64,000 nt of DNA from Longimicrobiales bacterium (GTDB taxonomy: Bacteria; Gemmatimonadota; Gemmatimonadetes; Longimicrobiales; Gaopeijiaceae), in contig OZ250165.1 in NCBI GenBank assembly GCA_965238005.1, forward strand, positions 768,001 through 832,000, given 5' to 3'. The notes below the pieces were generated by a model. It ran no database searches and was not told the DNA's origin. It saw only the letters and a program-made list of their open reading frames with translations. The number at the start of each line of letters is the position of its first letter. The stretch's first letter is position 1. Shown here one piece after another: positions 43,450-54,297 of this stretch. The translations under genes were made by a program, and so were the position numbers.

Positions 43450-44206
43450 CACTCTTCTCCACCGGTGGGCTTGCCACCGACCCAACCTCACAGATGCGCG
43501 CGTGGTCGCGGTCATGGCCTGACCCGCTGGACTACGACGGGAACATCCAGTCGCGCAGGTTCGTCGGCATGGTGTCGCTGTTGGCCCGGTGCCGCGCGAG
43601 GATGGTGCCGACCTGGCGCGTGACGCGTATTCCCAACGGCACTCTCGCTTTCGTGACCTAATTTGGCATTTCGTTCTCGTAATTGTCAAAGCCGGAAGCC
43701 TAGCTACTTCGCCATTTTTCCCCTTCTGAGGAGGACGAGGCCTGAAGGATGGGCAAGGTAGTCGGCTTCGCCACCCGCACGGGGACGGTGGCGATATTGC
43801 TCGTCGCTCTGCTCCGGGAGGCATATCCGCGCCAGTAGTCCCAAGATCGCCGTGCTTGCTCGGCCTAGGCGTCTTGGCCGATCACGAGCAAAGGCCATCG
43901 CTGGTTCGTGCAGTTCTGTAGCAGCTGAGGATCCCGTTGGCGGACCAGATCCAGATCCGCCGCAGCCGACCGAACGATTTCGAGCCGACGGGAGGATCCT
44001 CCAAGTTGAGGATTGGCTGCGTGCCAAGGGGGGCCCTCCCGTCTATGGCCGCGTGCTGCGGCCAGCCGCGAGATCGTGCTAGTGGAGTGGGCCACCGTTC
44101 ACGGCGATGTCCGGTCCCTCAGCGAGTTGCTGATCTGAAAGCCGGGCTGCGGACGTTTCGCGGGGTCGTCGCTTGCCCGGAGGCCGCGAGATAGCCGACC
44201 ACCACC

Positions 44207-44247
44207 TGGTGCTTCATCCGCTCCGGCGGGATCGTCCACTCCCGTGC
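44207..44247 (-). pseudogene. tiny P4-like integrase fragment
   Basis: AREWTIPPERMKH matches WTVPAKRMK of the two intact integrases. Confidence 0.45.
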
Positions 44248-44340
44248 CGTGGGCTTGCCAAAGAAGAGAACGCGCCACCTTCATACGCAATGACAGTGTG
44301 TCCTTCGCCGCTCGACGGGCTTCCTCGTCTCCTCGACGAC

Positions 44341-44833
44341 TGTCAATGGCCACGGAAAACTGCACACTTCTGGCCATTGAAAAGTGCACACTTTGGGGGA
44401 GCCCGCGCGGAGGGAGCGGAGCGACCGGAGCGGGGGCTCCCGATGGAGTCGGGACACCCGTCATGACGCTGCTCCCCCGATCTCCGCGTGCTCTGCGGAG
44501 ATGGCCCGGGAGGCGGTCGGGTGGATGGCCTTGGAGAGTTCCATGTGGCGTCGCATACCGGTAGCTGTTACCCCGGATGTTGACGATGTGGCAGCGGTGG
44601 AGCACCCGGTCGAGCAGCGCGGCGGCCATGACCTCGTCGTGCAGGGTGTCTCCCCACTGCTCGAAGCCCTTGTTGGAGGTGAGCACGGTCGAAGCGTGCT
44701 CGTAGCGCCGGTTGACGAGCTGGAAGAACAGGATGGCGCCGCTCCTGGTGACCGGGAGGTAGCCGATCTCGTCGACGACCAGGAGTGCGGGGTGGGTGAG
44801 GGTCTTCAGCCGATGGTTGAGCCGACCGGCCGC
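44341..44833 (-). mobile_element. istB: IS21-family remnant (istB 3' half and right end)
   Basis: LLVVDEIGY...LFFQLVNRRYE...LTSNK.F..WG...ALLDRVLH...I.GNSYR; terminus TGTCAATGGCCA with tandem TGCACACTT repeats. Confidence 0.88.
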
Positions 44834-44858
44834 CTCGGCAGAGTGCGGATAATGTGAT

Positions 44859-45255
44859 TCACGGCAAGTAATCGTCTAAGTTCAACTGGGACTGCACGAT
44901 CTGCCGCACTTGCCGCTTTGAGGACATCTGATTCCGCCGCACTGAAATAGCGGGGAAACGGTATCAAAAGGCGGGAGTCCCGGCTCCGCGCTGTTCAGTG
45001 TGGGCAATCCGCCAGCGGGTGTCAGCATGAGGTCCGGTGCCTATCCGCTCCGAGCGAAGCCGTCCGGGTTGGAGCGGAATCGGTGGACGGCTTGGCCTGG
45101 AACAGGTGGACGGCTTGGCTCGGAATGAGTGGACGACTTCGTCGGAATAGGCAAACTTGGCATAACCCGTCGCGGTAAACCCCGCCTGTTTCGATCCGCG
45201 CCCCCCGCGCGGGGCGGGGCGACGGCATCAAGGGGTTGAACGTCACGCTTATCAG
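44859..45255 (+). repeat. 397-bp direct repeat, copy 2 (includes I-C-like repeat at 45188-45223)
   Basis: Matches 26949-27345. Confidence 0.95.
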
Positions 45256-45361
45256 GCTCGGCACAGATGATATGATTCACGGTAGAGTCGAGGACTGGCG
45301 CGCCGACGTTAGGGTCCGGTGGCTATTCCGTCGCTTTCGCTCCGGGCCTCAGACCGGCTCC

Positions 45362-45663
45362 TGGCGTGACCCCCTGAAACGAGACCAGCGCGAATGTTAG
45401 GATCTGGCACTGGTCGCAAGATCAGGAGGAGGTCACAAATGAGCAGGAGAAGGCACACGCCGGAGCAGATCATCACGGCACTGAGGGAGGCCGAGGTAGG
45501 TCTGGCGAACGGCAAGACGGTGGCAATGGTGAGCCGTGAGCTCGGGATCAGCGAGCAAACGTACTACCGGTGGCGGAAGGAGTTTGGGGGGATGAAGGTG
45601 GATCAGGCCCGGCGGCTGAAGGAACTGGAGCGAGAGAACGGGCACCTGAAGCGGGCGGTGGCG
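45362..45663 (+). mobile_element. second IS3-family isoform: left end and truncated orfA
   Basis: TGGCGTGACCCCCTGAAACGAGACCAG; MSRRRHTPEQII... from 45439 to LKRAVA. Confidence 0.88.
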
Positions 45664-47008
45664 AGTGCCGGGCCGCGTTCGAGAAGAGGTTGTTGAGCAC
45701 CTGGACGATGCGCTCGCGGTCGGCCATCACCCGCGGGAGGTCCGGCGGGAGGTCGATGACGACGGCGTGCCGTCCGCCCCCGCTCAGAAAGGTGGTCCGG
45801 GCCCGATCCACGAGCGCGGCGACGCTGGAGGGCTCGGGCGCGCTGGAGGGCTCGGGCGCGATGGTGAGCGTGCCCGCCTCGATGCTCCCGGCGTCGAGGA
45901 GGTTCGCGATGAGGCCCCTCATGTGGTCCGCCTGCCCGTCGATGATGCGGAAGAACTGGAGCAGCTCGGCCTGGGGCGGGACGGGGGAGGCACCGAGCAC
46001 GGTCGCCGTCGAGCCCTTGATCGAGGTGAGCGGCGCGCGGAGCTCGTGGCTCACCATCCCGAGAAACTCCGCCCGCTGCCGCTCGAGGTCGTCGAGCGGC
46101 GCCAGGTCCTGAACGGTGGTGACGACCGACACGAGTTCCCCCTCCTCCGAGCGGATCGGGGTGACGTTCAGGAGCGTCCGGACGCTCCGCCCGTCGGGCA
46201 CCGATAGGACGACCTCCTCGGCGCGCATCGTCGTGGCGCCCTCGAGGTGCCACGCGAGGGGAAACTCCTCGAGGGAGTGCTCCCGCCCGTCGGCGTGCCT
46301 GCACGTCAACACCTCGAAAAGGTGCTCGGTCGGGCGGCCCGGGGTGCGGAGCCCCTCGGCGATCCGCCGCGCCTCGCGGTTGAACAGGACCGGGCGACCG
46401 GTGGCAGCGTCGAAGACCCCGACCCCGACCGGCGAGGTCTCGACCAGAGCCTCGAGGTCGGCCCGCGCCCGCTCGACGTCGCGGTGCGTCCTCGCGTTCG
46501 CGATCGCCGTCCCCGCCTGCGAGGCGAAGAGCAGCAGGATCTCCTCGTCCTCGGCGGTGAACGCCTCGCCGTTCTCCTTGTCGCCCAGGAAAAAGTTCCC
46601 CAGATGCTCGCGCCGGTGGTGCATCGGGGTCCCCTGCAGCGTCTTCGAGCTCGAAGGGTTCGAGAGGCCGAGCGAGCGAAGGTAGCCGGGGAGGTCCGCC
46701 ACCCGGAGCGGCGCCGGAAGGTCCCTCAGGTGCTCGAAGAGCCAAGGCCCGTCGGGCCAGTCCATCAGATTCCGGCGCTCGTCCGGCGTCATGCCGGAGG
46801 TGACGACGTCCTGCACCCGTCCCCGGTCGTCGACGGTCGTGATCATGCTCTGACGGGCGCTCGTGAGCGCGCGGGCGCTGTCGACGACCTCCTCAAGCAC
46901 CGTGGCCAGGTCGAGGCTCTGGCTGATGCGCAGGATCGCCGCGCTCAGCCGCGAGATGCGGTTGTCGGAAGGCCTGCTCCCGTGCCCCGCAAGCTCTCCA
47001 TCGCTCAA
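45664..47008 (-). pseudogene. GAF-PAS histidine kinase truncated in the HATPase domain
   Basis: FTAEDEE..LLFASQAG.AI.NA GAF; PAS; VSHELRAPLTSIKG H-box; ends just after N-box QVLNNLFSNAARHS at the IS3 junction; 18-bp tandem duplication 45823-45858. Confidence 0.88.
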
Positions 47009-47157
47009 TGTTCCACTCCCGCTGCGGGGTGAGGCGGAGCCGGCCGGGCTCCGCAGCGGAGTGGAGGATAGCGCGTTTCCGGGGGACAGTCACGAACGGG
47101 CCATGAGACTCGCCCGTAAGTCACAATAAGCTTACTAACAATCGGTTAGCTTCCCGT

Positions 47158-47191
47158 TTTACTCGCGATAACTGTAGTTATCAGGAGTAAA
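47158..47191 (+). other. loxP-like recombination site L
   Basis: TTTACTCGCGATA-ACTGTAGT-TATCAGGAGTAAA (13-8-13; arms 11/13 complementary). Confidence 0.85.
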
Positions 47192-47236
47192 CGCCGCAAG
47201 AAATTGTGACCTGCGGGCCGTGCGGTCTCCCGGGGC

Positions 47237-48200
47237 TCATCGGCGTTTCTGGAGGCGTGCGAGCTGGGCGGCGCCGTTGCGCTTGGCGAGGAGCCGCCCG
47301 CCGTATAGCTGCACCATCGAGGCGCTCTTCCAGCGTCCGGCCTGCATGATGGCGGGGATCCCGATCCCCGATGCGACCATGTCCTGAGCGGCCCCCACCC
47401 GGGGGCTGTGCCCGGAGATCCGGCGCACCATCTCGGCGGGGAGCCCGGCGCGTTCGGCCATCGCCCGGTAGATGCGCGGCACCTGGCTCGCATCGAGGCT
47501 CTCGCCCACGGTGCCGTCTTTGTGGAGCGAACGGAAGAGCGGCCCGGCGGCGATCCCGCTCGCGCACAGCCACTCCCGCACCAGCTTCACGGTGTCGAAG
47601 TGCAGGTACAGCATCGCACCGCCGCCCTCCGGATCGCTCTTCGCGCGGCGTACGAGGAGCGAGGCCGATCCTCCCCTATCTATCGTCACATCAGCTACTT
47701 GCAGCGCGACCAGCTCCGAGCGGCGGAGCATGGCGTCGTAGGCGACGGCGAGCATCGCACGGTTCCGCACGTCGATGGTCCGGTCGCCGCCGGCCGACGT
47801 CAGGCGTCGGCGGAGTTTCCAGGTCAGACCCTGCACCTGCGTCTGGCGGGCCCCCCTCCGCCGGCGCATGCGCTGTAGGGCCCGCTGCACCGCGGCGCGC
47901 TCAAGCGGGCTCCGTTCCCCGGCCGCCTTGTGCATGGCGGCGATGCTGAATACGTAGCGGCGCACGGTGGCCGGGGCGCGGACGCCCGCCATCGCATCGA
48001 CGTACGCCGCCACCGTGGCCGCGCGCGCGGGGAAGCGGAGAGAGTCCCCGCTCCGCGCACCATGCCGCGAACCCTTCCAGGTCCGCTCGGAGGGCCCGGA
48101 CGGTGTTCCCGCTGAGGGCGCCGGCGGCGTCCTGCAGGCACGCAGCGAGCCGTTCTCCGATTTGTGACCGCCTTGTGGTGGGACCTGTAGGGCCGGACAC
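47237..48200 (-). CDS. Cre-like tyrosine recombinase (frameshift near 48030)
   Basis: AYDAMLRRSEL, AKSD, SGHSPRVGAAQDM, IMQAGRW, MVQLY closely follow the Cre catalytic motifs; SAM-like N-terminus NTVRALRADL..FAAWC in another frame; one extra C in the run at 48029-48032. Confidence 0.88.
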
Positions 48201-48258
48201 GACTACTGGGCCGAAATCGGCATAAGTGACTCCTCTACAACGATATACGTCAAAACGT

Positions 48259-48292
48259 TTTACTCCCGATAACTACAGTTATCGGGAGCAAA
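48259..48292 (-). other. loxP-like recombination site R (inverted relative to L)
   Basis: TTTACTCCCGATA-ACTACAGT-TATCGGGAGCAAA; spacer is the exact reverse complement of the site L spacer. Confidence 0.85.
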
Positions 48293-48431
48293 AACGGCGT
48301 CGCGGCACCAAGTGGCAAGGGACAGGCCTTCACGGCGAGAGCGAGCAAGAGCGCCATGCGGTCGTCCGGGCGCACGGGAAACCGGCCCCGCGTTGCGGAG
48401 GTCGCCAACACGACAAGGGAGACGAACAGCA

Positions 48432-51400
48432 ATGGGATTCGAACCGACACGGCAGACGGGACATTCGCGATCGGAGCGGGCTGCACGCATGGCCCCGCCG
48501 CTATCGTGGCGCTTCCTCTATCCGCGCGCGGGGGCGGCCCGTCTCCATCGTGGACTTCTGGCGTGCGCTTCGCGGGGCGGCATGTCGGGGCTGCGCCATC
48601 TCGGGCCATCTCTCGCCGGACCGGCCCTGATGGGTCTGATCCTGCTTGCGTTCTCCACCCTCGGCGCAGCGCCGGCCCAGGCGCAGACGGTGGCCACCGA
48701 CGCGACGCTGAGCGAGATCGTCGTCAATAAGAAGGAAGGCAATGACCGCGGCGATGAGATTGTGCTGGAGCCGGCCTTTTCGAGCGACCGGACCTCCTAC
48801 AGCTTCGTGGTGGGACACGAATCCTCTTCGTTCCTGACGGTCCGCACGACCCACCCCCGCGCGACGGTGAGGATCTTCGAGGGTCGGCTGTCGCATCTGG
48901 AGACGCCGCCGCATCTGGAGGGGGAGGTGAGGCATTACGGCGAGGTGGTGGTGCGGTCTCTCGGGGGTGGGCGGTGGTCGACCAATCTCAATCCCTTCGA
49001 AGGCCGCTATTGGATCGACGTGACGGTGACTTCGGCGGACGAAGAACACCAAGTGAACTACAGGTTGGACTATTTGGCCAGGGGCCGGCCGCCGAGTCTG
49101 CTTTGGGCCTTGATCGCGCCGCACGGCTCGAGGGGGACTCTCGACCGCGTGACGCTGAAATACGACAAGATCCTGAGACCGGACGGGCCCGATCCGGACA
49201 ACCCCTTGGCACCGCCGGCGAGCGCCTTTTCGGTGGAGGTGGAAGGCGAACGTGTGCCGGTGACGAGGACGCAGATCAACGCCGAGTATCTGCAGCTGAG
49301 GCTGGCGCGGGAGCTGTCCCCCCAGGAGCAGCAGGTGACGGTGAGCTATGCCCGTCCGGCCACGAACCCGGTGCAGACCAACATCGGAGGGCTCGCGTTC
49401 GACTTCACCGACTACCCGGTGGACGTCAGCCGGGCACCCACGACCAACAATTCCGAGCTGTCGGTCGCGGACGCCGAGGTGACCGAGGGCGAAGGGACGA
49501 TGGACTTCGTGGTGACGCTCGCGCCGGCGCAGCGGCCGCCGGCGTGGGTGGACTACGCGACGGCGGACGGCACGGCCAGGGCGGGCGAGGACTACAGGGC
49601 GACGAGCGGACGGGTGAAGTTCCGGAAGAGGGAGACGACCAAGACCGTCTCCGTGCCGATCATCAACGACGCGGTGGAGGAGGACGGGGAGACGTTCACG
49701 CTCGTCCTGAGCGACCCCGAAGGCGCGCTGATCGCCGACGGGGAGGCGACCGGCACGATCGTCGACGACGGCGACGAAGGGGTGCAGCCGCCGCGGCCGC
49801 CGCAGAACACCGGCACGGAGCTGTTCTCCGAAACGATGACCGTGGGGTACGACTTCAACAACACTTGGGCCGGATATGACGACGGATCAGGTGGTAACTC
49901 TCAGATCGGTATGCTGCCCGAGACCGGCTTCTCCTTCGGCGGCACCGGCTACACGGTGGAGCAGGTGACGAACAGTGATTCCGGGGAGCTGCGGCTGAAG
50001 CTGAACGGCCTGCTGACGCAGGAGGACGCCGCGCCGCTGGACCTGTATATCGGCAACACGCTGTTCGGGTTGGCCGGGGCGGACCGCTACTTTGGCAACC
50101 GCAACTTTCGCGCCTGGAATGACTCCGGTCTGGTCTTGCGCTCCGGCTCGACCATTCTGGTGCGGATTGTGGATCGGAGGCCGGCGATGACCGGGACGTT
50201 CGAGAACGTCCCGCGGAACCACAACAGCCCGTTCACCTTCGAGGTGCATTTCAGCGAGGAGGTCGTGGTGAGCGCGGAGACGCTGCGCGACCATGCCTTC
50301 GCGGTGACCAACGGCGAGGTGACGGGGGCGCGGCAGCTCAATCCGCCGAGCACGATGGCGTGGGAGATCACGGTCGCTTCGTTCTCGGAGGAGGCGGTGA
50401 CGTTGGTGCTGCCGGAGACGACGGACTGCGCGGCGGCGGGCGCGATCTGCACCGAAGACGGGCGGATGCTCTCGGCGGATATCTCGGCGGTGGTGGAGGG
50501 GCCCGGGGCGACGCCCGAGCCGCTGACGGCGACCTTCGGCGACGTGCCATCCGAGCACACGGGACAGGCGTTCACGTTCGGGCTGGCGTTCAGCGAGGAG
50601 GTCGAGATCAGCTATGAGACGCTGCGCGACGACGCGTTCGAGGTCACGGGCGGGAGCGTCACGACCGCGAGCCGCACCGCGCCGCCGTCGAACCAGGAGT
50701 GGGCGATCACGGTCGAGCCGGCTTCGAGCAGCGACACGGTGGCCATCACGCTGCCGGAGACGACCGACTGCGGCGCGGCCGGCGCCATCTGCACGGGCGG
50801 GGACGACCCGAGGCCGCTGAGCAACAGCCCGTCGCACACCGTGGCGGCGGCGGCGGCGGTGCCGGAGCCGCTGACGGCGACCTTCGGCGACGACATGCCG
50901 GCCTCGCACACGGGAGAGACGTTCACGTTCGGGCTGAGCTTCAGCGAGGAACTCGCCTCCGACTTCAGCTACAAGACGCTGCGCGACGACGCGTTCAGCG
51001 TGACCGGCGGAAGCGTGAAGAATGCGAGCCGGCGGACGCAGGGCAGCAACCTCGCGTGGAACATCACGGTCGAGCCGGCTTCCACGAGCGCCACGGTGAC
51101 CATCACGCTGCCGGAGACGACCGACTGCGCCGCGACCGGGGCGATCTGCACAGAGGACGGCCGAGCGCTGTCGCACTCGCTGTCGGCGACCGTCAACGCG
51201 GCCTCCGCGAGCGCGAGCGCCGCGGCGAACGGGGACGGGGACGCGGAGGACGACGCGCTGGCGCTGGTGGCCGGCGTGACCCCGGACGAGGCCGCCCAAG
51301 CGTTGTTCGGCGAGCGGAGGCTGAGCGAGGCCCGGCTGGACGCTCTCGACCTTCTGGGCAACGGAAACGGTCGCTACGACCTCGGCGACCTGCTCTCCTG

Positions 51401-51983
51401 GATCGAGCGCTGCCGACAGGGTGAAGCGAGTTGCGGAAGCGTGCCCACGGATCCCGGTCCCGTCTCGGGCGCCGCCCTGCTCGCCGCCGGCGCGGTCGGA
51501 CGGCGGGGGAGCTCCAGGCGCCCCAAACGGCGCGATTCCGGGTGCCGCGGACGCTCACCGGGGGGACGCGGCAGGCGCCGCCGGGCGGGCATGGCAGGAT
51601 ACGTGCTCGCCATGCTGCTCGCCGCCACGACCTGGTCGTGTGCCGGCGATGCGGTCGGGCCGGCCGCCGTCGAGCAGGATCCGGGCTTCCTGACCGTGGA
51701 AGTAACCGGGCTCGTCGCCAATCGCGACATCGGCGTGCTGCTGGAGCTGGAAGGCCCCGGCATCGAAACCGTGCGGGCTCCCGGTCTCGAGTTGTACCAA
51801 TCCACGGCGGCCGGGCGGCATCAGATCGTCGTGGCGGGCTCGCTCATGGCGGGTCCCCTCGTGCAGTTCGAGGTGCCGGACCGCGGCCAGCTTCCTCTGT
51901 ACCGGGTCCGCGTCCAGCAGGTCACGGGAGAGGGCTACGGGCTGAGGGACACAGGGAACTACCGGGCCGTGATCACGCACTGA
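48432..51983 (+). CDS. large surface protein: cadherin-like beta-sandwich, SwmB-like, Calx-beta, three GAICT-DGR repeats, C-terminal lipoprotein-like module
   Basis: AAPAQAQ signal cleavage; DATLS...PAFSSDRTSY; LSVADAEVTEG...TADGTARAGEDY; 3x FTF...FSEE...LRD.AF.VT.G...DC.A.GAICT; start uncertain (48432 or 48630). Confidence 0.8.
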   Translation: MGFEPTRQTGHSRSERAARMAPPLSWRFLYPRAGAARLHRGLLACASRGGMSGLRHLGPSLAGPALMGLILLAFSTLGAAPAQAQTVATDATLSEIVVNKKEGNDRGDEIVLEPAFSSDRTSYSFVVGHESSSFLTVRTTHPRATVRIFEGRLSHLETPPHLEGEVRHYGEVVVRSLGGGRWSTNLNPFEGRYWIDVTVTSADEEHQVNYRLDYLARGRPPSLLWALIAPHGSRGTLDRVTLKYDKILRPDGPDPDNPLAPPASAFSVEVEGERVPVTRTQINAEYLQLRLARELSPQEQQVTVSYARPATNPVQTNIGGLAFDFTDYPVDVSRAPTTNNSELSVADAEVTEGEGTMDFVVTLAPAQRPPAWVDYATADGTARAGEDYRATSGRVKFRKRETTKTVSVPIINDAVEEDGETFTLVLSDPEGALIADGEATGTIVDDGDEGVQPPRPPQNTGTELFSETMTVGYDFNNTWAGYDDGSGGNSQIGMLPETGFSFGGTGYTVEQVTNSDSGELRLKLNGLLTQEDAAPLDLYIGNTLFGLAGADRYFGNRNFRAWNDSGLVLRSGSTILVRIVDRRPAMTGTFENVPRNHNSPFTFEVHFSEEVVVSAETLRDHAFAVTNGEVTGARQLNPPSTMAWEITVASFSEEAVTLVLPETTDCAAAGAICTEDGRMLSADISAVVEGPGATPEPLTATFGDVPSEHTGQAFTFGLAFSEEVEISYETLRDDAFEVTGGSVTTASRTAPPSNQEWAITVEPASSSDTVAITLPETTDCGAAGAICTGGDDPRPLSNSPSHTVAAAAAVPEPLTATFGDDMPASHTGETFTFGLSFSEELASDFSYKTLRDDAFSVTGGSVKNASRRTQGSNLAWNITVEPASTSATVTITLPETTDCAATGAICTEDGRALSHSLSATVNAASASASAAANGDGDAEDDALALVAGVTPDEAAQALFGERRLSEARLDALDLLGNGNGRYDLGDLLSWIERCRQGEASCGSVPTDPGPVSGAALLAAGAVGRRGSSRRPKRRDSGCRGRSPGGRGRRRRAGMAGYVLAMLLAATTWSCAGDAVGPAAVEQDPGFLTVEVTGLVANRDIGVLLELEGPGIETVRAPGLELYQSTAAGRHQIVVAGSLMAGPLVQFEVPDRGQLPLYRVRVQQVTGEGYGLRDTGNYRAVITH

Positions 51984-52535
51984 CCACCTCGGAAGGGATG
52001 GCCCCCCGACGTGCGCGCCGCAGCTCGTGTGCGCCGGGGGGCGCGTAGCAACCCTGACGCGCACCGATCCTGCTCGGTCCCGCCTGCTCGAGCCTACAGC
52101 GGGGCGCGCCTCCATGACAGGCCGGACGGCCCGGGGTTCGCCCCGCGGACCGCGCGGCGAAGCCAACCATGACCTCCGGTCCCGCGATCCCGCCGTCCCC
52201 GAAAAACGGCGCGCAGCCGATGTAGAGCCGCACGTCCTCGGCGCACTCCATGATGTGCTCGGCCAGGCTCTTCACGGCTTCTCTCCCCGCGCCGGAACCC
52301 CACCCACCAACACAGCGCCGTCCTCCCCGGAGCAACCGGCCCGGCCCGCTGCCCGTCGCCCGCACTCCATGCCCTCGACAGGACCTCCGCCGAGGGCTCC
52401 GGGGGTGTGCGCGACCGCGCCGGCGGAGCCACCGGACGGGCCGTTCGTACGTCTGAATATCTCTACGCAGAGCCAGCACTTGAGACACTTCCTACGGGTT
52501 GATGTCCTCGCAAACGGGTCTTCGTCGTTGCGGCC

Positions 52536-53159
52536 ATGCGGACGCTGGAGCAGCAGTTCGCTTCGCGGTTGAGCGCGTTCCTGCGGCGCACGGGCCTGAG
52601 GCCGACGACGTTCGGCAGGATGGCGCTGGGCGACCCGAACCTGGTGCGCCAGATCGATGGCGGCCGCTCGCTGTCGCTCAAGACCGCGGACCGGGTTCTG
52701 GCCTTCATGGCCGAGTACGACGGGGACTCGGGCGGCGCGCGGGACCCGCCCCGCCGCCCTCGACACCGGACGGCCGCGTCACGGACGAGGAGAACGTGGA
52801 GAAGCAGAGCGACGACCGAACAACCGATCGAACGGAGTACCAAGGCGCCGACCCGCTTCCTGCGGCTGCCTGAGGTGCAGGCCCGCACGGGCCAGTCGCG
52901 GAGCACGATCTATGTGCGGGTGGAGCAGGGGCGCTTCCCCCGGCCGGTCTCGCTGGGTGCGCGCGCCGTGGGCTGGATCGAGGCTGAGGTGGACGAGTGG
53001 ATCCGCGAGCGGATCGAGGCGAGCCGGAGTGTCGCGGACGGTGCCGTCCACTGCCCCCCAAGAGGGAGGACCCGGCGGTCATTCTCATCACCCGTCTCCA
53101 GACCGACGGGGCGCCGGTCGCGGAGGAGGAGGGATGATCGGCCATCTCCCGGGCCGTGA
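52536..53159 (+). CDS. alpA: Cro-like HTH-AlpA fusion
   Basis: Paralogue of 22250-22807. Confidence 0.85.
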   Translation: MRTLEQQFASRLSAFLRRTGLRPTTFGRMALGDPNLVRQIDGGRSLSLKTADRVLAFMAEYDGDSGGARDPPRRPRHRTAASRTRRTWRSRATTEQPIERSTKAPTRFLRLPEVQARTGQSRSTIYVRVEQGRFPRPVSLGARAVGWIEAEVDEWIRERIEASRSVADGAVHCPPRGRTRRSFSSPVSRPTGRRSRRRRDDRPSPGP

Positions 53160-53196
53160 CCAGGCGCTCGGGTCCTTCGGCTGGACGGGACGCGAC
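53134..53196 (+). pseudogene. N-terminal stub of the conserved ICE (replication-relaxation-like) gene
   Basis: GGAGG RBS, MIGHLPGRDQALGSFGWTGRD versus MIAHLRGREKALEAFGWTDRE at 61787. Confidence 0.7.
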
Positions 53197-53468
53197 GGAC
53201 GCACCGTGGATCGGCACTCGGAATCGTGCACCTCCCGGCGTGAACAGTTCCACGCCGGTGACTTCCCCTTCCCACCCCCATCTGGATCGACCTTCCGCCG
53301 CACCCGTGAAGGGAGGCTCCCCGGAGCCCCGATGGGGGCGTTGCCCAAGCCATTGGCGGCGCGATCCAGCGGCTTCGGCGCCGTCCGGAACGACCCCGAA
53401 CGTCCCGGGACTGTAGGCAGTTTGCTAAAGGTTGACGCCCTTGCGCAGAGGTCTTCAGCGTTCGGGGC

Positions 53469-53987
53469 ATGATGACGCTGGAGCAGCAGTTCAGATCGCG
53501 GGTGAGGGCGTTCCTCGGACGCTCGAGCCTGAGCCCGACGAGGTTCGGCAGGATGGCGTTGGGCGACCCGAGTCTGGTGCGCCGGATCGAGCGCGGTCGT
53601 TCGCTGACGCTGAGAACGGCGGACCGGATTCTGGCGTTCGTGTCCGAGTACGACGGGAAGACGGGCGGCACGCGCGATCCGCCCCGTCGTCCTCGATACC
53701 GGAAGCCCTCGCCGCGAGCGAGGAAGACGAACAGGAGCAGAGCGACGACCGAGCAGCCCATGGAACAGAGAACGAACGCGCCGACCCGGATTCTCCGCCT
53801 GTCGGAGGTGCAGGCCCGCACGGGTCTGTCGCGGACCACGATCTACCGGTGGCGGGTTGGGGGACGCTTCCCCCGGGCGATTGTGCTGGGAAGGCGGACC
53901 GTGGGCTGGATCGAGTCGGAGGTGGAGGAGTGGATCCGCGAGCAGATCGCGGAGAGCCGGGGCGGCGCCGAGAGTGCCGCCCACTGA
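53469..53987 (+). CDS. alpA: Cro-like HTH-AlpA fusion heading the T4SS operon
   Basis: PTRFGRMALGDPSLV...; ILRLSEVQARTGLSRTTIY...FP..I.LG.R.VGW.ESEV..WI. Confidence 0.85.
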   Translation: MMTLEQQFRSRVRAFLGRSSLSPTRFGRMALGDPSLVRRIERGRSLTLRTADRILAFVSEYDGKTGGTRDPPRRPRYRKPSPRARKTNRSRATTEQPMEQRTNAPTRILRLSEVQARTGLSRTTIYRWRVGGRFPRAIVLGRRTVGWIESEVEEWIREQIAESRGGAESAAH

Positions 53988-54009
53988 CCCCGAGATGGAG
54001 GACAAGAGA

Positions 54010-54297
54010 ATGAGAACGTTGTTGACGACGGTGCGGACGGCTGCGTGGGCCGCGCTGTGGATGCTCGTGCCCGCCCGGCTGTTGGCCCAGGGCACGAGTC
54101 CGTGGGTGGAAGCGGTGAACGAGCTTCAGGCGCAGTTCACGGGTCCGATCGCGAGGGGGCTGTCGCTGATCGCGATCGTGGTGGGCGGGCTGATGTTCGC
54201 GTTCGGCGAGGGCGGGAGCAAGCGCACGCTGGCCGGGATCATCTTCGGGCTCGGGATGGCGATGGGCGCGGCCAACTTCCTGGCCTGGCTGTTCTGA
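54010..54297 (+). CDS. virB2: TrbC/VirB2 pilin
   Basis: Signal peptide, SPW...L...TGPIA..LSLIAIVV.G..FAFGE; GGAGG RBS. Confidence 0.88.
   Translation: MRTLLTTVRTAAWAALWMLVPARLLAQGTSPWVEAVNELQAQFTGPIARGLSLIAIVVGGLMFAFGEGGSKRTLAGIIFGLGMAMGAANFLAWLF

Follow-up and report, generated by a model that had tools for sequence, protein, structure and literature searches.

A Cre-like recombinase gene is enclosed by two inverted 34-bp sites

The DNA analysed here, referred to as the window, is a stretch of 64,000 nucleotides from a Longimicrobiales bacterium. It contains a gene for a Cre-like tyrosine recombinase that lies between two short inverted sites, with a sensor-kinase gene beyond one site and a gene for a large surface protein beyond the other. 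The segment between the sites, with the recombinase gene and its leader, is called the cassette below. The features are as follows, in window coordinates.

45394..45696, plus strand: fragment of an IS3-type transposase OrfA gene (Pfam HTH_Tnp_1, E 4e-21), which abuts the truncated end of the regulator gene
45548..47008, minus strand: GAF-PAS-HisKA gene (Pfam), coding for the N-terminal 454 residues of a fused kinase-receiver-DNA-binding regulator
47009..47157, minus strand: flank A, conserved, between the site and the regulator gene (from an alignment of 31 loci)
47158..47191, no strand: left lox-like site L, downstream relative to the recombinase gene; 13-8-13 layout, centre GT on the plus strand
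47237..48200, minus strand: Cre-like tyrosine recombinase gene, split as assembled into the open reading frames 47237-48013 and 47901-48200
48201..48258, minus strand: leader of the recombinase gene, inside the cassette (from an alignment of 57 loci)
48259..48292, no strand: right lox-like site R, upstream relative to the gene; centre AC on the plus strand and therefore inverted with respect to L
48312..51983, plus strand: large surface-protein gene with Calx-beta and an SWM repeat (Pfam), at the 5' side of the recombinase gene

The genome carries three copies of the cassette recombinase. Copy 2 is 99% identical to the window copy (copy 1) and lies at the very start of the single contig of the assembly (G000:C1:1-1008, locus L008), and copy 3, 80% identical to the window copy, is found 66 kb downstream of it, outside the window. 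Copy 3 is intact and codes for 330 amino acids, and its protein is 80% identical to that of copy 2. Alignment of the window gene with the two other copies revealed one extra A at 48032-48033, which breaks the reading frame. This base is missing from the contigs of all four public runs, thus the frameshift that the original prediction had reckoned with is probably not real, being either an assembly error or a private mutation.

We assessed the nature of the enzyme by domain and structure searches. In copies 2 and 3, Pfam recognised Phage_integrase together with the SAM-like N-terminal domain (Phage_int_SAM_1). The best PDB match of copy 3 in a phmmer search was Cre (E 1.3e-31, query residues 34-319 against Cre 32-333), and the next PDB family was XerD at E 6.6e-7. 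In the same alignment Cre residues R173, K201, H289, R292, W315 and Y324 are all identical in copy 3, and the window reading frame 47237-48013 carries the same catalytic motifs. These six residues are named as the catalytic set in PMC10250229. The overall identity to P1 Cre is 31% (tblastn). The enzyme is thus Cre-like, as had been proposed.

The leader contains a conserved block TATRTCRTTG (48238-48247 on the plus strand), a GGAG ribosome-binding motif and the usual ATG of the family at 48221-48223. In copies 1 and 2 and in the copy of a close relative (genome G001, described below) this ATG is out of frame by a deletion of one nucleotide. The deletion leaves a six-codon upstream open reading frame which ends 2 nt before a GTG (window 48198-48223, minus strand), and this GTG is a possible start of the long recombinase reading frame. 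The only hint of the internal promoter considered in the original prediction is the conserved leader block, which would suit a promoter sharing some of its sequence with the inner arm of the upstream site; a scan of 46900-48700 for sigma-70 consensus promoters returned no sites. A terminator scan yielded one weak terminator-like site outside the cassette (48295-48310, minus strand), and the Rfam search gave two matches to microRNA families only, both of them due to chance.

The two sites match each other and occur only beside the recombinase gene

The longest inverted repeat reported by the repeat finder in the region 46000-49500 is formed by sites L and R, with arms at 47157-47191 and 48259-48293 (35 nt, 91% complementary, spaced by 1067 nt). 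The 8-nt spacers of the two sites, ACTGTAGT and ACTACAGT, are exact reverse complements, and the spacer of each site is palindromic apart from the central GT/AC. Each site is therefore a 16-2-16 near-palindrome in which the central dinucleotide is the only asymmetry. The 13-8-13 parse is still reasonable, since in distant relatives perfect 13-nt arms flank an 8-nt spacer that is plainly asymmetric.

A degenerate pattern made from both sites had no match in the 64-kb window other than L and R themselves (4 strand-matches), and the expectation by chance was 0.00 in 100 dinucleotide-preserving shuffles; chance palindromes were rejected on this ground. In the whole 4.84-Mb genome there are five palindromic GATA-N8-TATC sites, each of them beside a copy of the recombinase gene. 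The original prediction had placed two 34-bp loxP-like sites with exactly complementary spacers at 47158-47191 and 48259-48292, around the recombinase gene alone and with arms other than those of loxP. All of this is borne out: the sites are present with the sequence as written, the gene (47237-48200, minus strand) is the only one enclosed, and the loxP arm in the phage P1 record has 8 or 7 of 13 positions in common with the arms found here.

The cassette is a member of a large family

In a scan of public genomes, with one genome taken per species, we found 79 related loci, so that together with the three copies of this genome 82 loci were examined. The pair of recombinase and sites, which had been put forward as a new one, is thus not unique and represents one member of a large multi-copy family. 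Most of the related loci come from metagenome-assembled genomes (MAGs) titled Longimicrobiales, where several occur per genome and up to 8 on one contig. Loci at 56-75% identity were found in MAGs titled Vicinamibacterales, Latescibacterota, Rariloculaceae, Pseudomonadales and Poriferihabitaceae, and remoter ones (32-51% identity) in Alpha- and Gammaproteobacteria and in Magnetococcales. Two of the loci counted, L014 and L015, are identical across 5.5 kb and may be one region assembled twice.

Both sites are present in 41 of the 82 loci. In every one of these 41 the central dinucleotides are reverse complementary to each other (36 GT/AC, 2 GG/CC and 3 GC/GC), and in 28 the same is true of the whole 8-nt spacers. 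Where an arm or a spacer varies, the two sites of that locus vary in concert, as in copy 3, in which AACT/AGTT is replaced by AGTT/AACT at both.

Among 22 loci of distant relatives no second site was found. In five of these 22 (L061, L067, L073, L074 and L076; 41-51% identity) one 13-8-13 site precedes the gene at a distance of 45-213 nt; one of the five is on a plasmid. As the distant relatives show at most one site, the layout with two sites looks derived from a one-site layout like that of Cre/loxP. The nearest homologues on plasmids reach up to 47% identity. A scan of metagenomes with the 18-nt core of the site returned 30 loci, none of them of the cassette family. In one metagenome contig (L113) the same 18-nt core adjoins a gene for a recombinase only 28% identical; this may be a very distant family member with a conserved core.

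A conserved regulator gene lies on one side and diverse adhesin-type genes on the other

The full-length regulator, as seen at L014:5252-7597, is a single protein of 781 amino acids with GAF, PAS, HisKA, HATPase_c, Response_reg and Trans_reg_C (OmpR-type) domains. The regulators of the window, of copy 2 and of the relative break off at about residue 454, inside the ATPase domain, and no intact regulator was found in this genome, both copies being truncated at residue 445-455 of 781. The homology of the window regulator to the family stops at about 45652. The leftward GAF-PAS kinase of the original prediction is present, but it is not there by chance: it is the truncated form of a conserved partner of the cassette, located downstream of the recombinase gene in 41 and upstream of it in 3 of the 82 loci. 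The region 44099-45696 of the window consists of insertion-sequence debris, in which the reading frame 44099-44686 (minus strand) is IS21-helper-like by eye and several short repeats recur elsewhere in the genome. No site was found at the far end of the conserved unit of cassette and regulator, where the homology either ends at the stop codon of the regulator or extends into another gene that the loci have in common.

Between the site and the regulator gene, flank A (about 150 nt) carries GTGAC-type repeats at 47089-47093 and 47120-47124 and a -35/-10-like pair with 17-nt spacing. As flank A has a promoter-like pair of its own, the regulator gene may not depend on read-through. The flank also contains a leader hairpin (about 47015-47065, in the stretch 46995-47075, minus strand) in which CCACUCC... 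is predicted to pair with the GGGAGUGG ribosome-binding region. The fold has an energy of -37.6 kcal/mol (z -2.5), and its pairs are preserved in 11 loci with a double change in one of 15 pairs and almost no covariation. Conserved GTGAC/GTCAC motifs flank the downstream site, outside the cassette (window 47089-47135) as well as inside it, immediately ahead of the site (47206-47210), and a further GTCAC motif is found just before the start of the recombinase gene. These motifs are candidate binding sites of the fused regulator.

On the other side of the cassette, the surface-protein gene likely starts within its open reading frame, at 48433 or 48582. A divergent open reading frame of at least 150 amino acids that starts no more than 700 nt from the upstream site is present in 46 loci. 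Our scan of these neighbours covered 42 of the 46, without the two loci in the flipped state, L015 (a duplicate) and L067 (a distant relative). Adhesin-type repeats (Calx-beta, fn3, LRR, cadherin, SWM, Big_5, CARDB or Ig) were recognised in 33 of the 42 neighbours; seven of the remaining nine had no family assigned and two were hexapeptide transferases. The proteins on the adhesin side are very diverse, in contrast to the cassette and the regulator, which are 72-98% identical between loci.

Internal repeats with units 74-80% identical lie at 50230-51151 and 52484-54036, within and beyond the adhesin gene, and have paralogous stretches elsewhere in the genome. At window position 48291, contigs of the public runs X1-X4 carry another variant of the site (centre CC, arms ...GCGCGATAATT) joined to sequence that resembles the adhesin flank, in all four runs. 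This flank is thus common to related loci or strains that have a different site.

The cassette occurs in both orientations between the same flanks

In copy 2, the left flank of the window and its regulator gene come after the cassette in reverse-complemented form (98.6% identity over 1540 nt). The site at this junction is composed exactly of the outer half of L and the inner half of R. Such a hybrid is the product expected from a crossover in the centre of the site and thus supports inversion. The contig begins within copy 2, so that the left end of this copy is missing, and no continuation of it is present at the end of the contig. Probably, the assembly was left open at this repeat or was misjoined there.

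A second case was found in the relative G001. Both its regulator flank (99% identity) and its adhesin flank (92%) are on the minus strand with respect to the window, and the cassette between them (97%) is on the plus strand; hence the cassette alone is reversed at an orthologous locus. Near the 5' end of the relative's flipped cassette lies an IS256-type element of 1.43 kb (L013:2560-3992; Transposase_mut, E 8e-38), between an upstream open reading frame and that of the recombinase, with an apparent duplication of 9 nt; this insertion may lock the relative's copy. The third flipped locus, L023, is independent and belongs to another lineage.

Contigs of public runs placed on 46700-48800 break at the sites; being contigs, they bear on the orientation and give no frequencies. 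A 94-nt contig of run X1 consists of the reverse complement of 47192-47211 followed by 48259-48332, and so joins the far end of the cassette to the adhesin flank. In run X2, which comes from another study, a joint 47206|48263 of opposite strands was found at a depth of 7, as compared with a summed depth of several hundred. The junction of X1 has a C at position 9 of the inner half-site, where the window has a T. Its source is therefore not a simple flip of the assembled sequence, but a variant molecule or else the left end of copy 2, which the assembly does not show.

We then scored all 82 loci by the presence of the flank A motif beside a site. The orientation was standard in 39 and flipped in 3; 15 loci had one or both sites without the flank motif, and in 25 no site was found. 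The anticipated inversion is thus seen in copy 2, in the relative and in the contigs of X1 and X2, and scoring of related genomes confirms that the opposite state exists, in 3 of the 42 loci with flank A. If the switch toggles, it mostly rests with the recombinase gene pointing toward the regulator gene.

Probable self-inversion of the cassette and its alternatives

In our view the locus is quite probably a self-inverting cassette, in which a Cre-type enzyme, encoded by the sole gene between its own inverted 34-bp sites, flips the 1.1-kb segment that carries this gene and its leader. The architecture is conserved in a large family, the centres of the sites match in inverted form, and both orientations are found between the same flanks. 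From the sequences we infer that the encoded enzyme itself does the flipping; a flip by homologous recombination between the 34-bp repeats would look the same. The enzyme would bind the four half-sites, pair the two sites and invert the segment that holds its own gene. In the state seen most often, transcripts of the recombinase would continue toward the gene of the fused sensor-kinase/response-regulator, and in the rare, flipped state the recombinase gene would point into the large adhesin-type gene. Transcription leaving the cassette would thereby be directed to one neighbour or the other, and the surface protein would undergo phase variation. In our view, the most likely purpose of the arrangement is such a phase switch of the adhesin, possibly accompanied by altered expression of the regulator or the recombinase.

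Some observations count against a freely working switch. A bias of 39 standard loci to 3 flipped ones is not expected if the cassette toggles freely. The system of this genome is partly decayed, with both regulators truncated and the usual start codon out of frame; the recombinase of the window is frameshifted as assembled, and an intact regulator is lacking.

The strongest rival is a module for exchange or mobility, in which the sites mainly serve to move or swap the recombinase (plus the regulator) between adhesin loci and, through recombination between copies, to rearrange the chromosome, the flip being a by-product. It would fit the multi-copy nature of the family (three copies here, and as many as 8 loci on a contig of a different MAG), the 72-88% identity between MAGs labelled as different phyla and the cassettes 99% identical in different flanks of one genome (L014 and L016). 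Moreover, the outer edge of the upstream site is often the exact point from which copies are homologous, and a comparison of this genome with the relative shows the two regulator flanks and the adhesin flank in new combinations, with the breaks precisely at the sites. We nevertheless regard this explanation as unlikely. There is no target-site duplication at the ends of the window locus or of the aligned loci, and the genome has no solitary sites. In 42 loci the repeats have flank A on their outer side, so that the spreading unit is not the cassette alone, and the conserved unit lacks a site at its far end; besides, simple integration of a circle cannot yield two inverted sites. A transposon or insertion sequence with terminal inverted repeats was rejected on similar grounds, namely the absence of target-site duplications, the constancy of flank A in 42 loci and the absence of solitary or empty sites.

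The signs of decay could also mean that the locus is a relic, inactive in this genome, and that the differences in orientation are old events fixed in different lineages. The frameshift as assembled, the out-of-frame family ATG of copies 1 and 2 and of the relative, the two regulator copies that end at residue 445-455 of 781 with no intact one, and the insertion-sequence fragments that abut the locus or, as with the IS256-type element, interrupt the relative's cassette, would all agree with this. However, the frameshift is missing from the contigs of four out of four runs, copy 3 is intact with a protein 80% identical to that of copy 2, and two runs, each from a different study, have contigs with flipped junctions. 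In copy 2, moreover, the half-sites are exact recombinants of copies that are 99% identical, which argues for a recent event, and a mere relic appears improbable to us. Resolution of dimers or cyclisation, as performed by Cre/loxP for plasmids and phages, with the second site being incidental, would be in line with the single-site loci of distant relatives (five loci at 41-51% identity, one on a plasmid) and with the plasmid homologues that reach 47%. It is hardly credible for the close family, where a second, inverted site with a matching centre is present in 41 loci; inverted sites give inversion and not resolution, and the loci are chromosomal. This candidate was therefore set aside.

Self-inversion could also be part of a wider arrangement, which we propose only tentatively, all its parts being taken jointly. 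The Cre-type cassette and the fused regulator may form one portable unit that responds to signals: the regulator would bind the GTGAC repeats beside the downstream site and in the recombinase leader, so that a signal from the environment or a host would set the direction of the flip or its rate, and each of the several units in a genome would switch one of the diverse eukaryotic-like adhesins. Such a unit may have spread between phyla of bacteria that live together, and its site variants (GT, GG and GC centres, arms differing within a genome) may amount to an orthogonal set of Cre/lox type.

Comparison with known recombination systems

The closest known system is Cre/loxP of phage P1 (together with Dre, Vika, Nigri, Panto and the YR set of PMC10250229), with which the cassette shares the enzyme family, the catalytic residues and a 34-bp target beside the gene, in which two 13-nt arms flank an 8-nt spacer. 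The loxP arm, like the arms of the cassette, ends in ...ATA next to the spacer. However, the enzyme is 31% identical to Cre and the arms differ at 5-6 of 13 positions. In P1 one site lies beside cre, whereas here two inverted sites enclose the gene itself. The cassette also differs from Cre/loxP in being chromosomal and multi-copy, in its location beside adhesin and regulator genes, and in a spacer that is palindromic except for the two central bases. By sequence, the closest outgroup is formed by the single-site Cre-like recombinases of alphaproteobacterial plasmids and chromosomes listed above (L061, L067, L073, L074 and L076; 41-51%). Their 13-8-13 site is similar, but there is one per locus, and neither a fused regulator nor an adhesin neighbour was seen at these loci.

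In its layout the cassette resembles the Hin/hix system. The H segment of Salmonella and relatives is about 1 kb long and consists mainly of the gene of its own recombinase; its two short palindromic sites have an asymmetric centre of two bases, and it adjoins a gene for a surface structure. In the same manner, the cassette recombinase gene lies inside the segment which it would flip, the sites are palindromic with a 2-base centre, and a surface gene adjoins. The enzymes, however, are different: Hin is a serine recombinase, while that of the cassette is a tyrosine recombinase with the Pfam domains Phage_integrase and Phage_int_SAM_1 only. In contrast to Hin/hix, neither an enhancer nor an outward promoter was identified in the cassette (for the promoter, the sigma-70 scan of 46900-48700 gave none).

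Tyrosine recombinases that flip a short segment between inverted repeats at surface-protein genes are known from fimS (FimB/FimE) and from the invertible promoters of Bacteroides and others (PMC11602134). A biased orientation is also known for fimS. In these systems the segment holds a promoter and the recombinase gene lies outside, whereas the recombinase gene fills the segment of the cassette. Their enzymes are of the small integrase/Xer-like type and not Cre-like, and the repeats are short and not full 34-bp core sites.

The accessible part of PMC10250229 describes a search for palindromes within 1 kb of Cre-type genes and does not describe a self-enclosing pair. In literature searches and in passages of PMC10250229 and PMC11602134 we found no Cre-type gene enclosed by its own inverted sites; the approximately 500 enzyme/site pairs predicted in PMC10250229 may include members of the family. 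The chemistry of enzyme and site is known from Cre/lox and the layout from Hin-like invertible segments, and for their combination, and for the family, these searches gave no description.

In nature, Cre-type recombinases have mainly been known to serve phages and plasmids for cyclisation and resolution. Here, we find a large chromosomal family in which Cre chemistry appears in a different layout, at the head of diverse adhesin-type genes and paired with a fused sensor-regulator. Within the family there are dozens of natural pairs of enzyme and site with arms and spacer centres unlike those of loxP, two of which coexist in this genome, and these pairs are candidates for orthogonal tools of genome engineering. 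If the flip controls the adhesin genes, the cassette would be the tyrosine-recombinase counterpart of the classical Hin switch, and it would represent a main route of surface variation in uncultured symbionts of several phyla.
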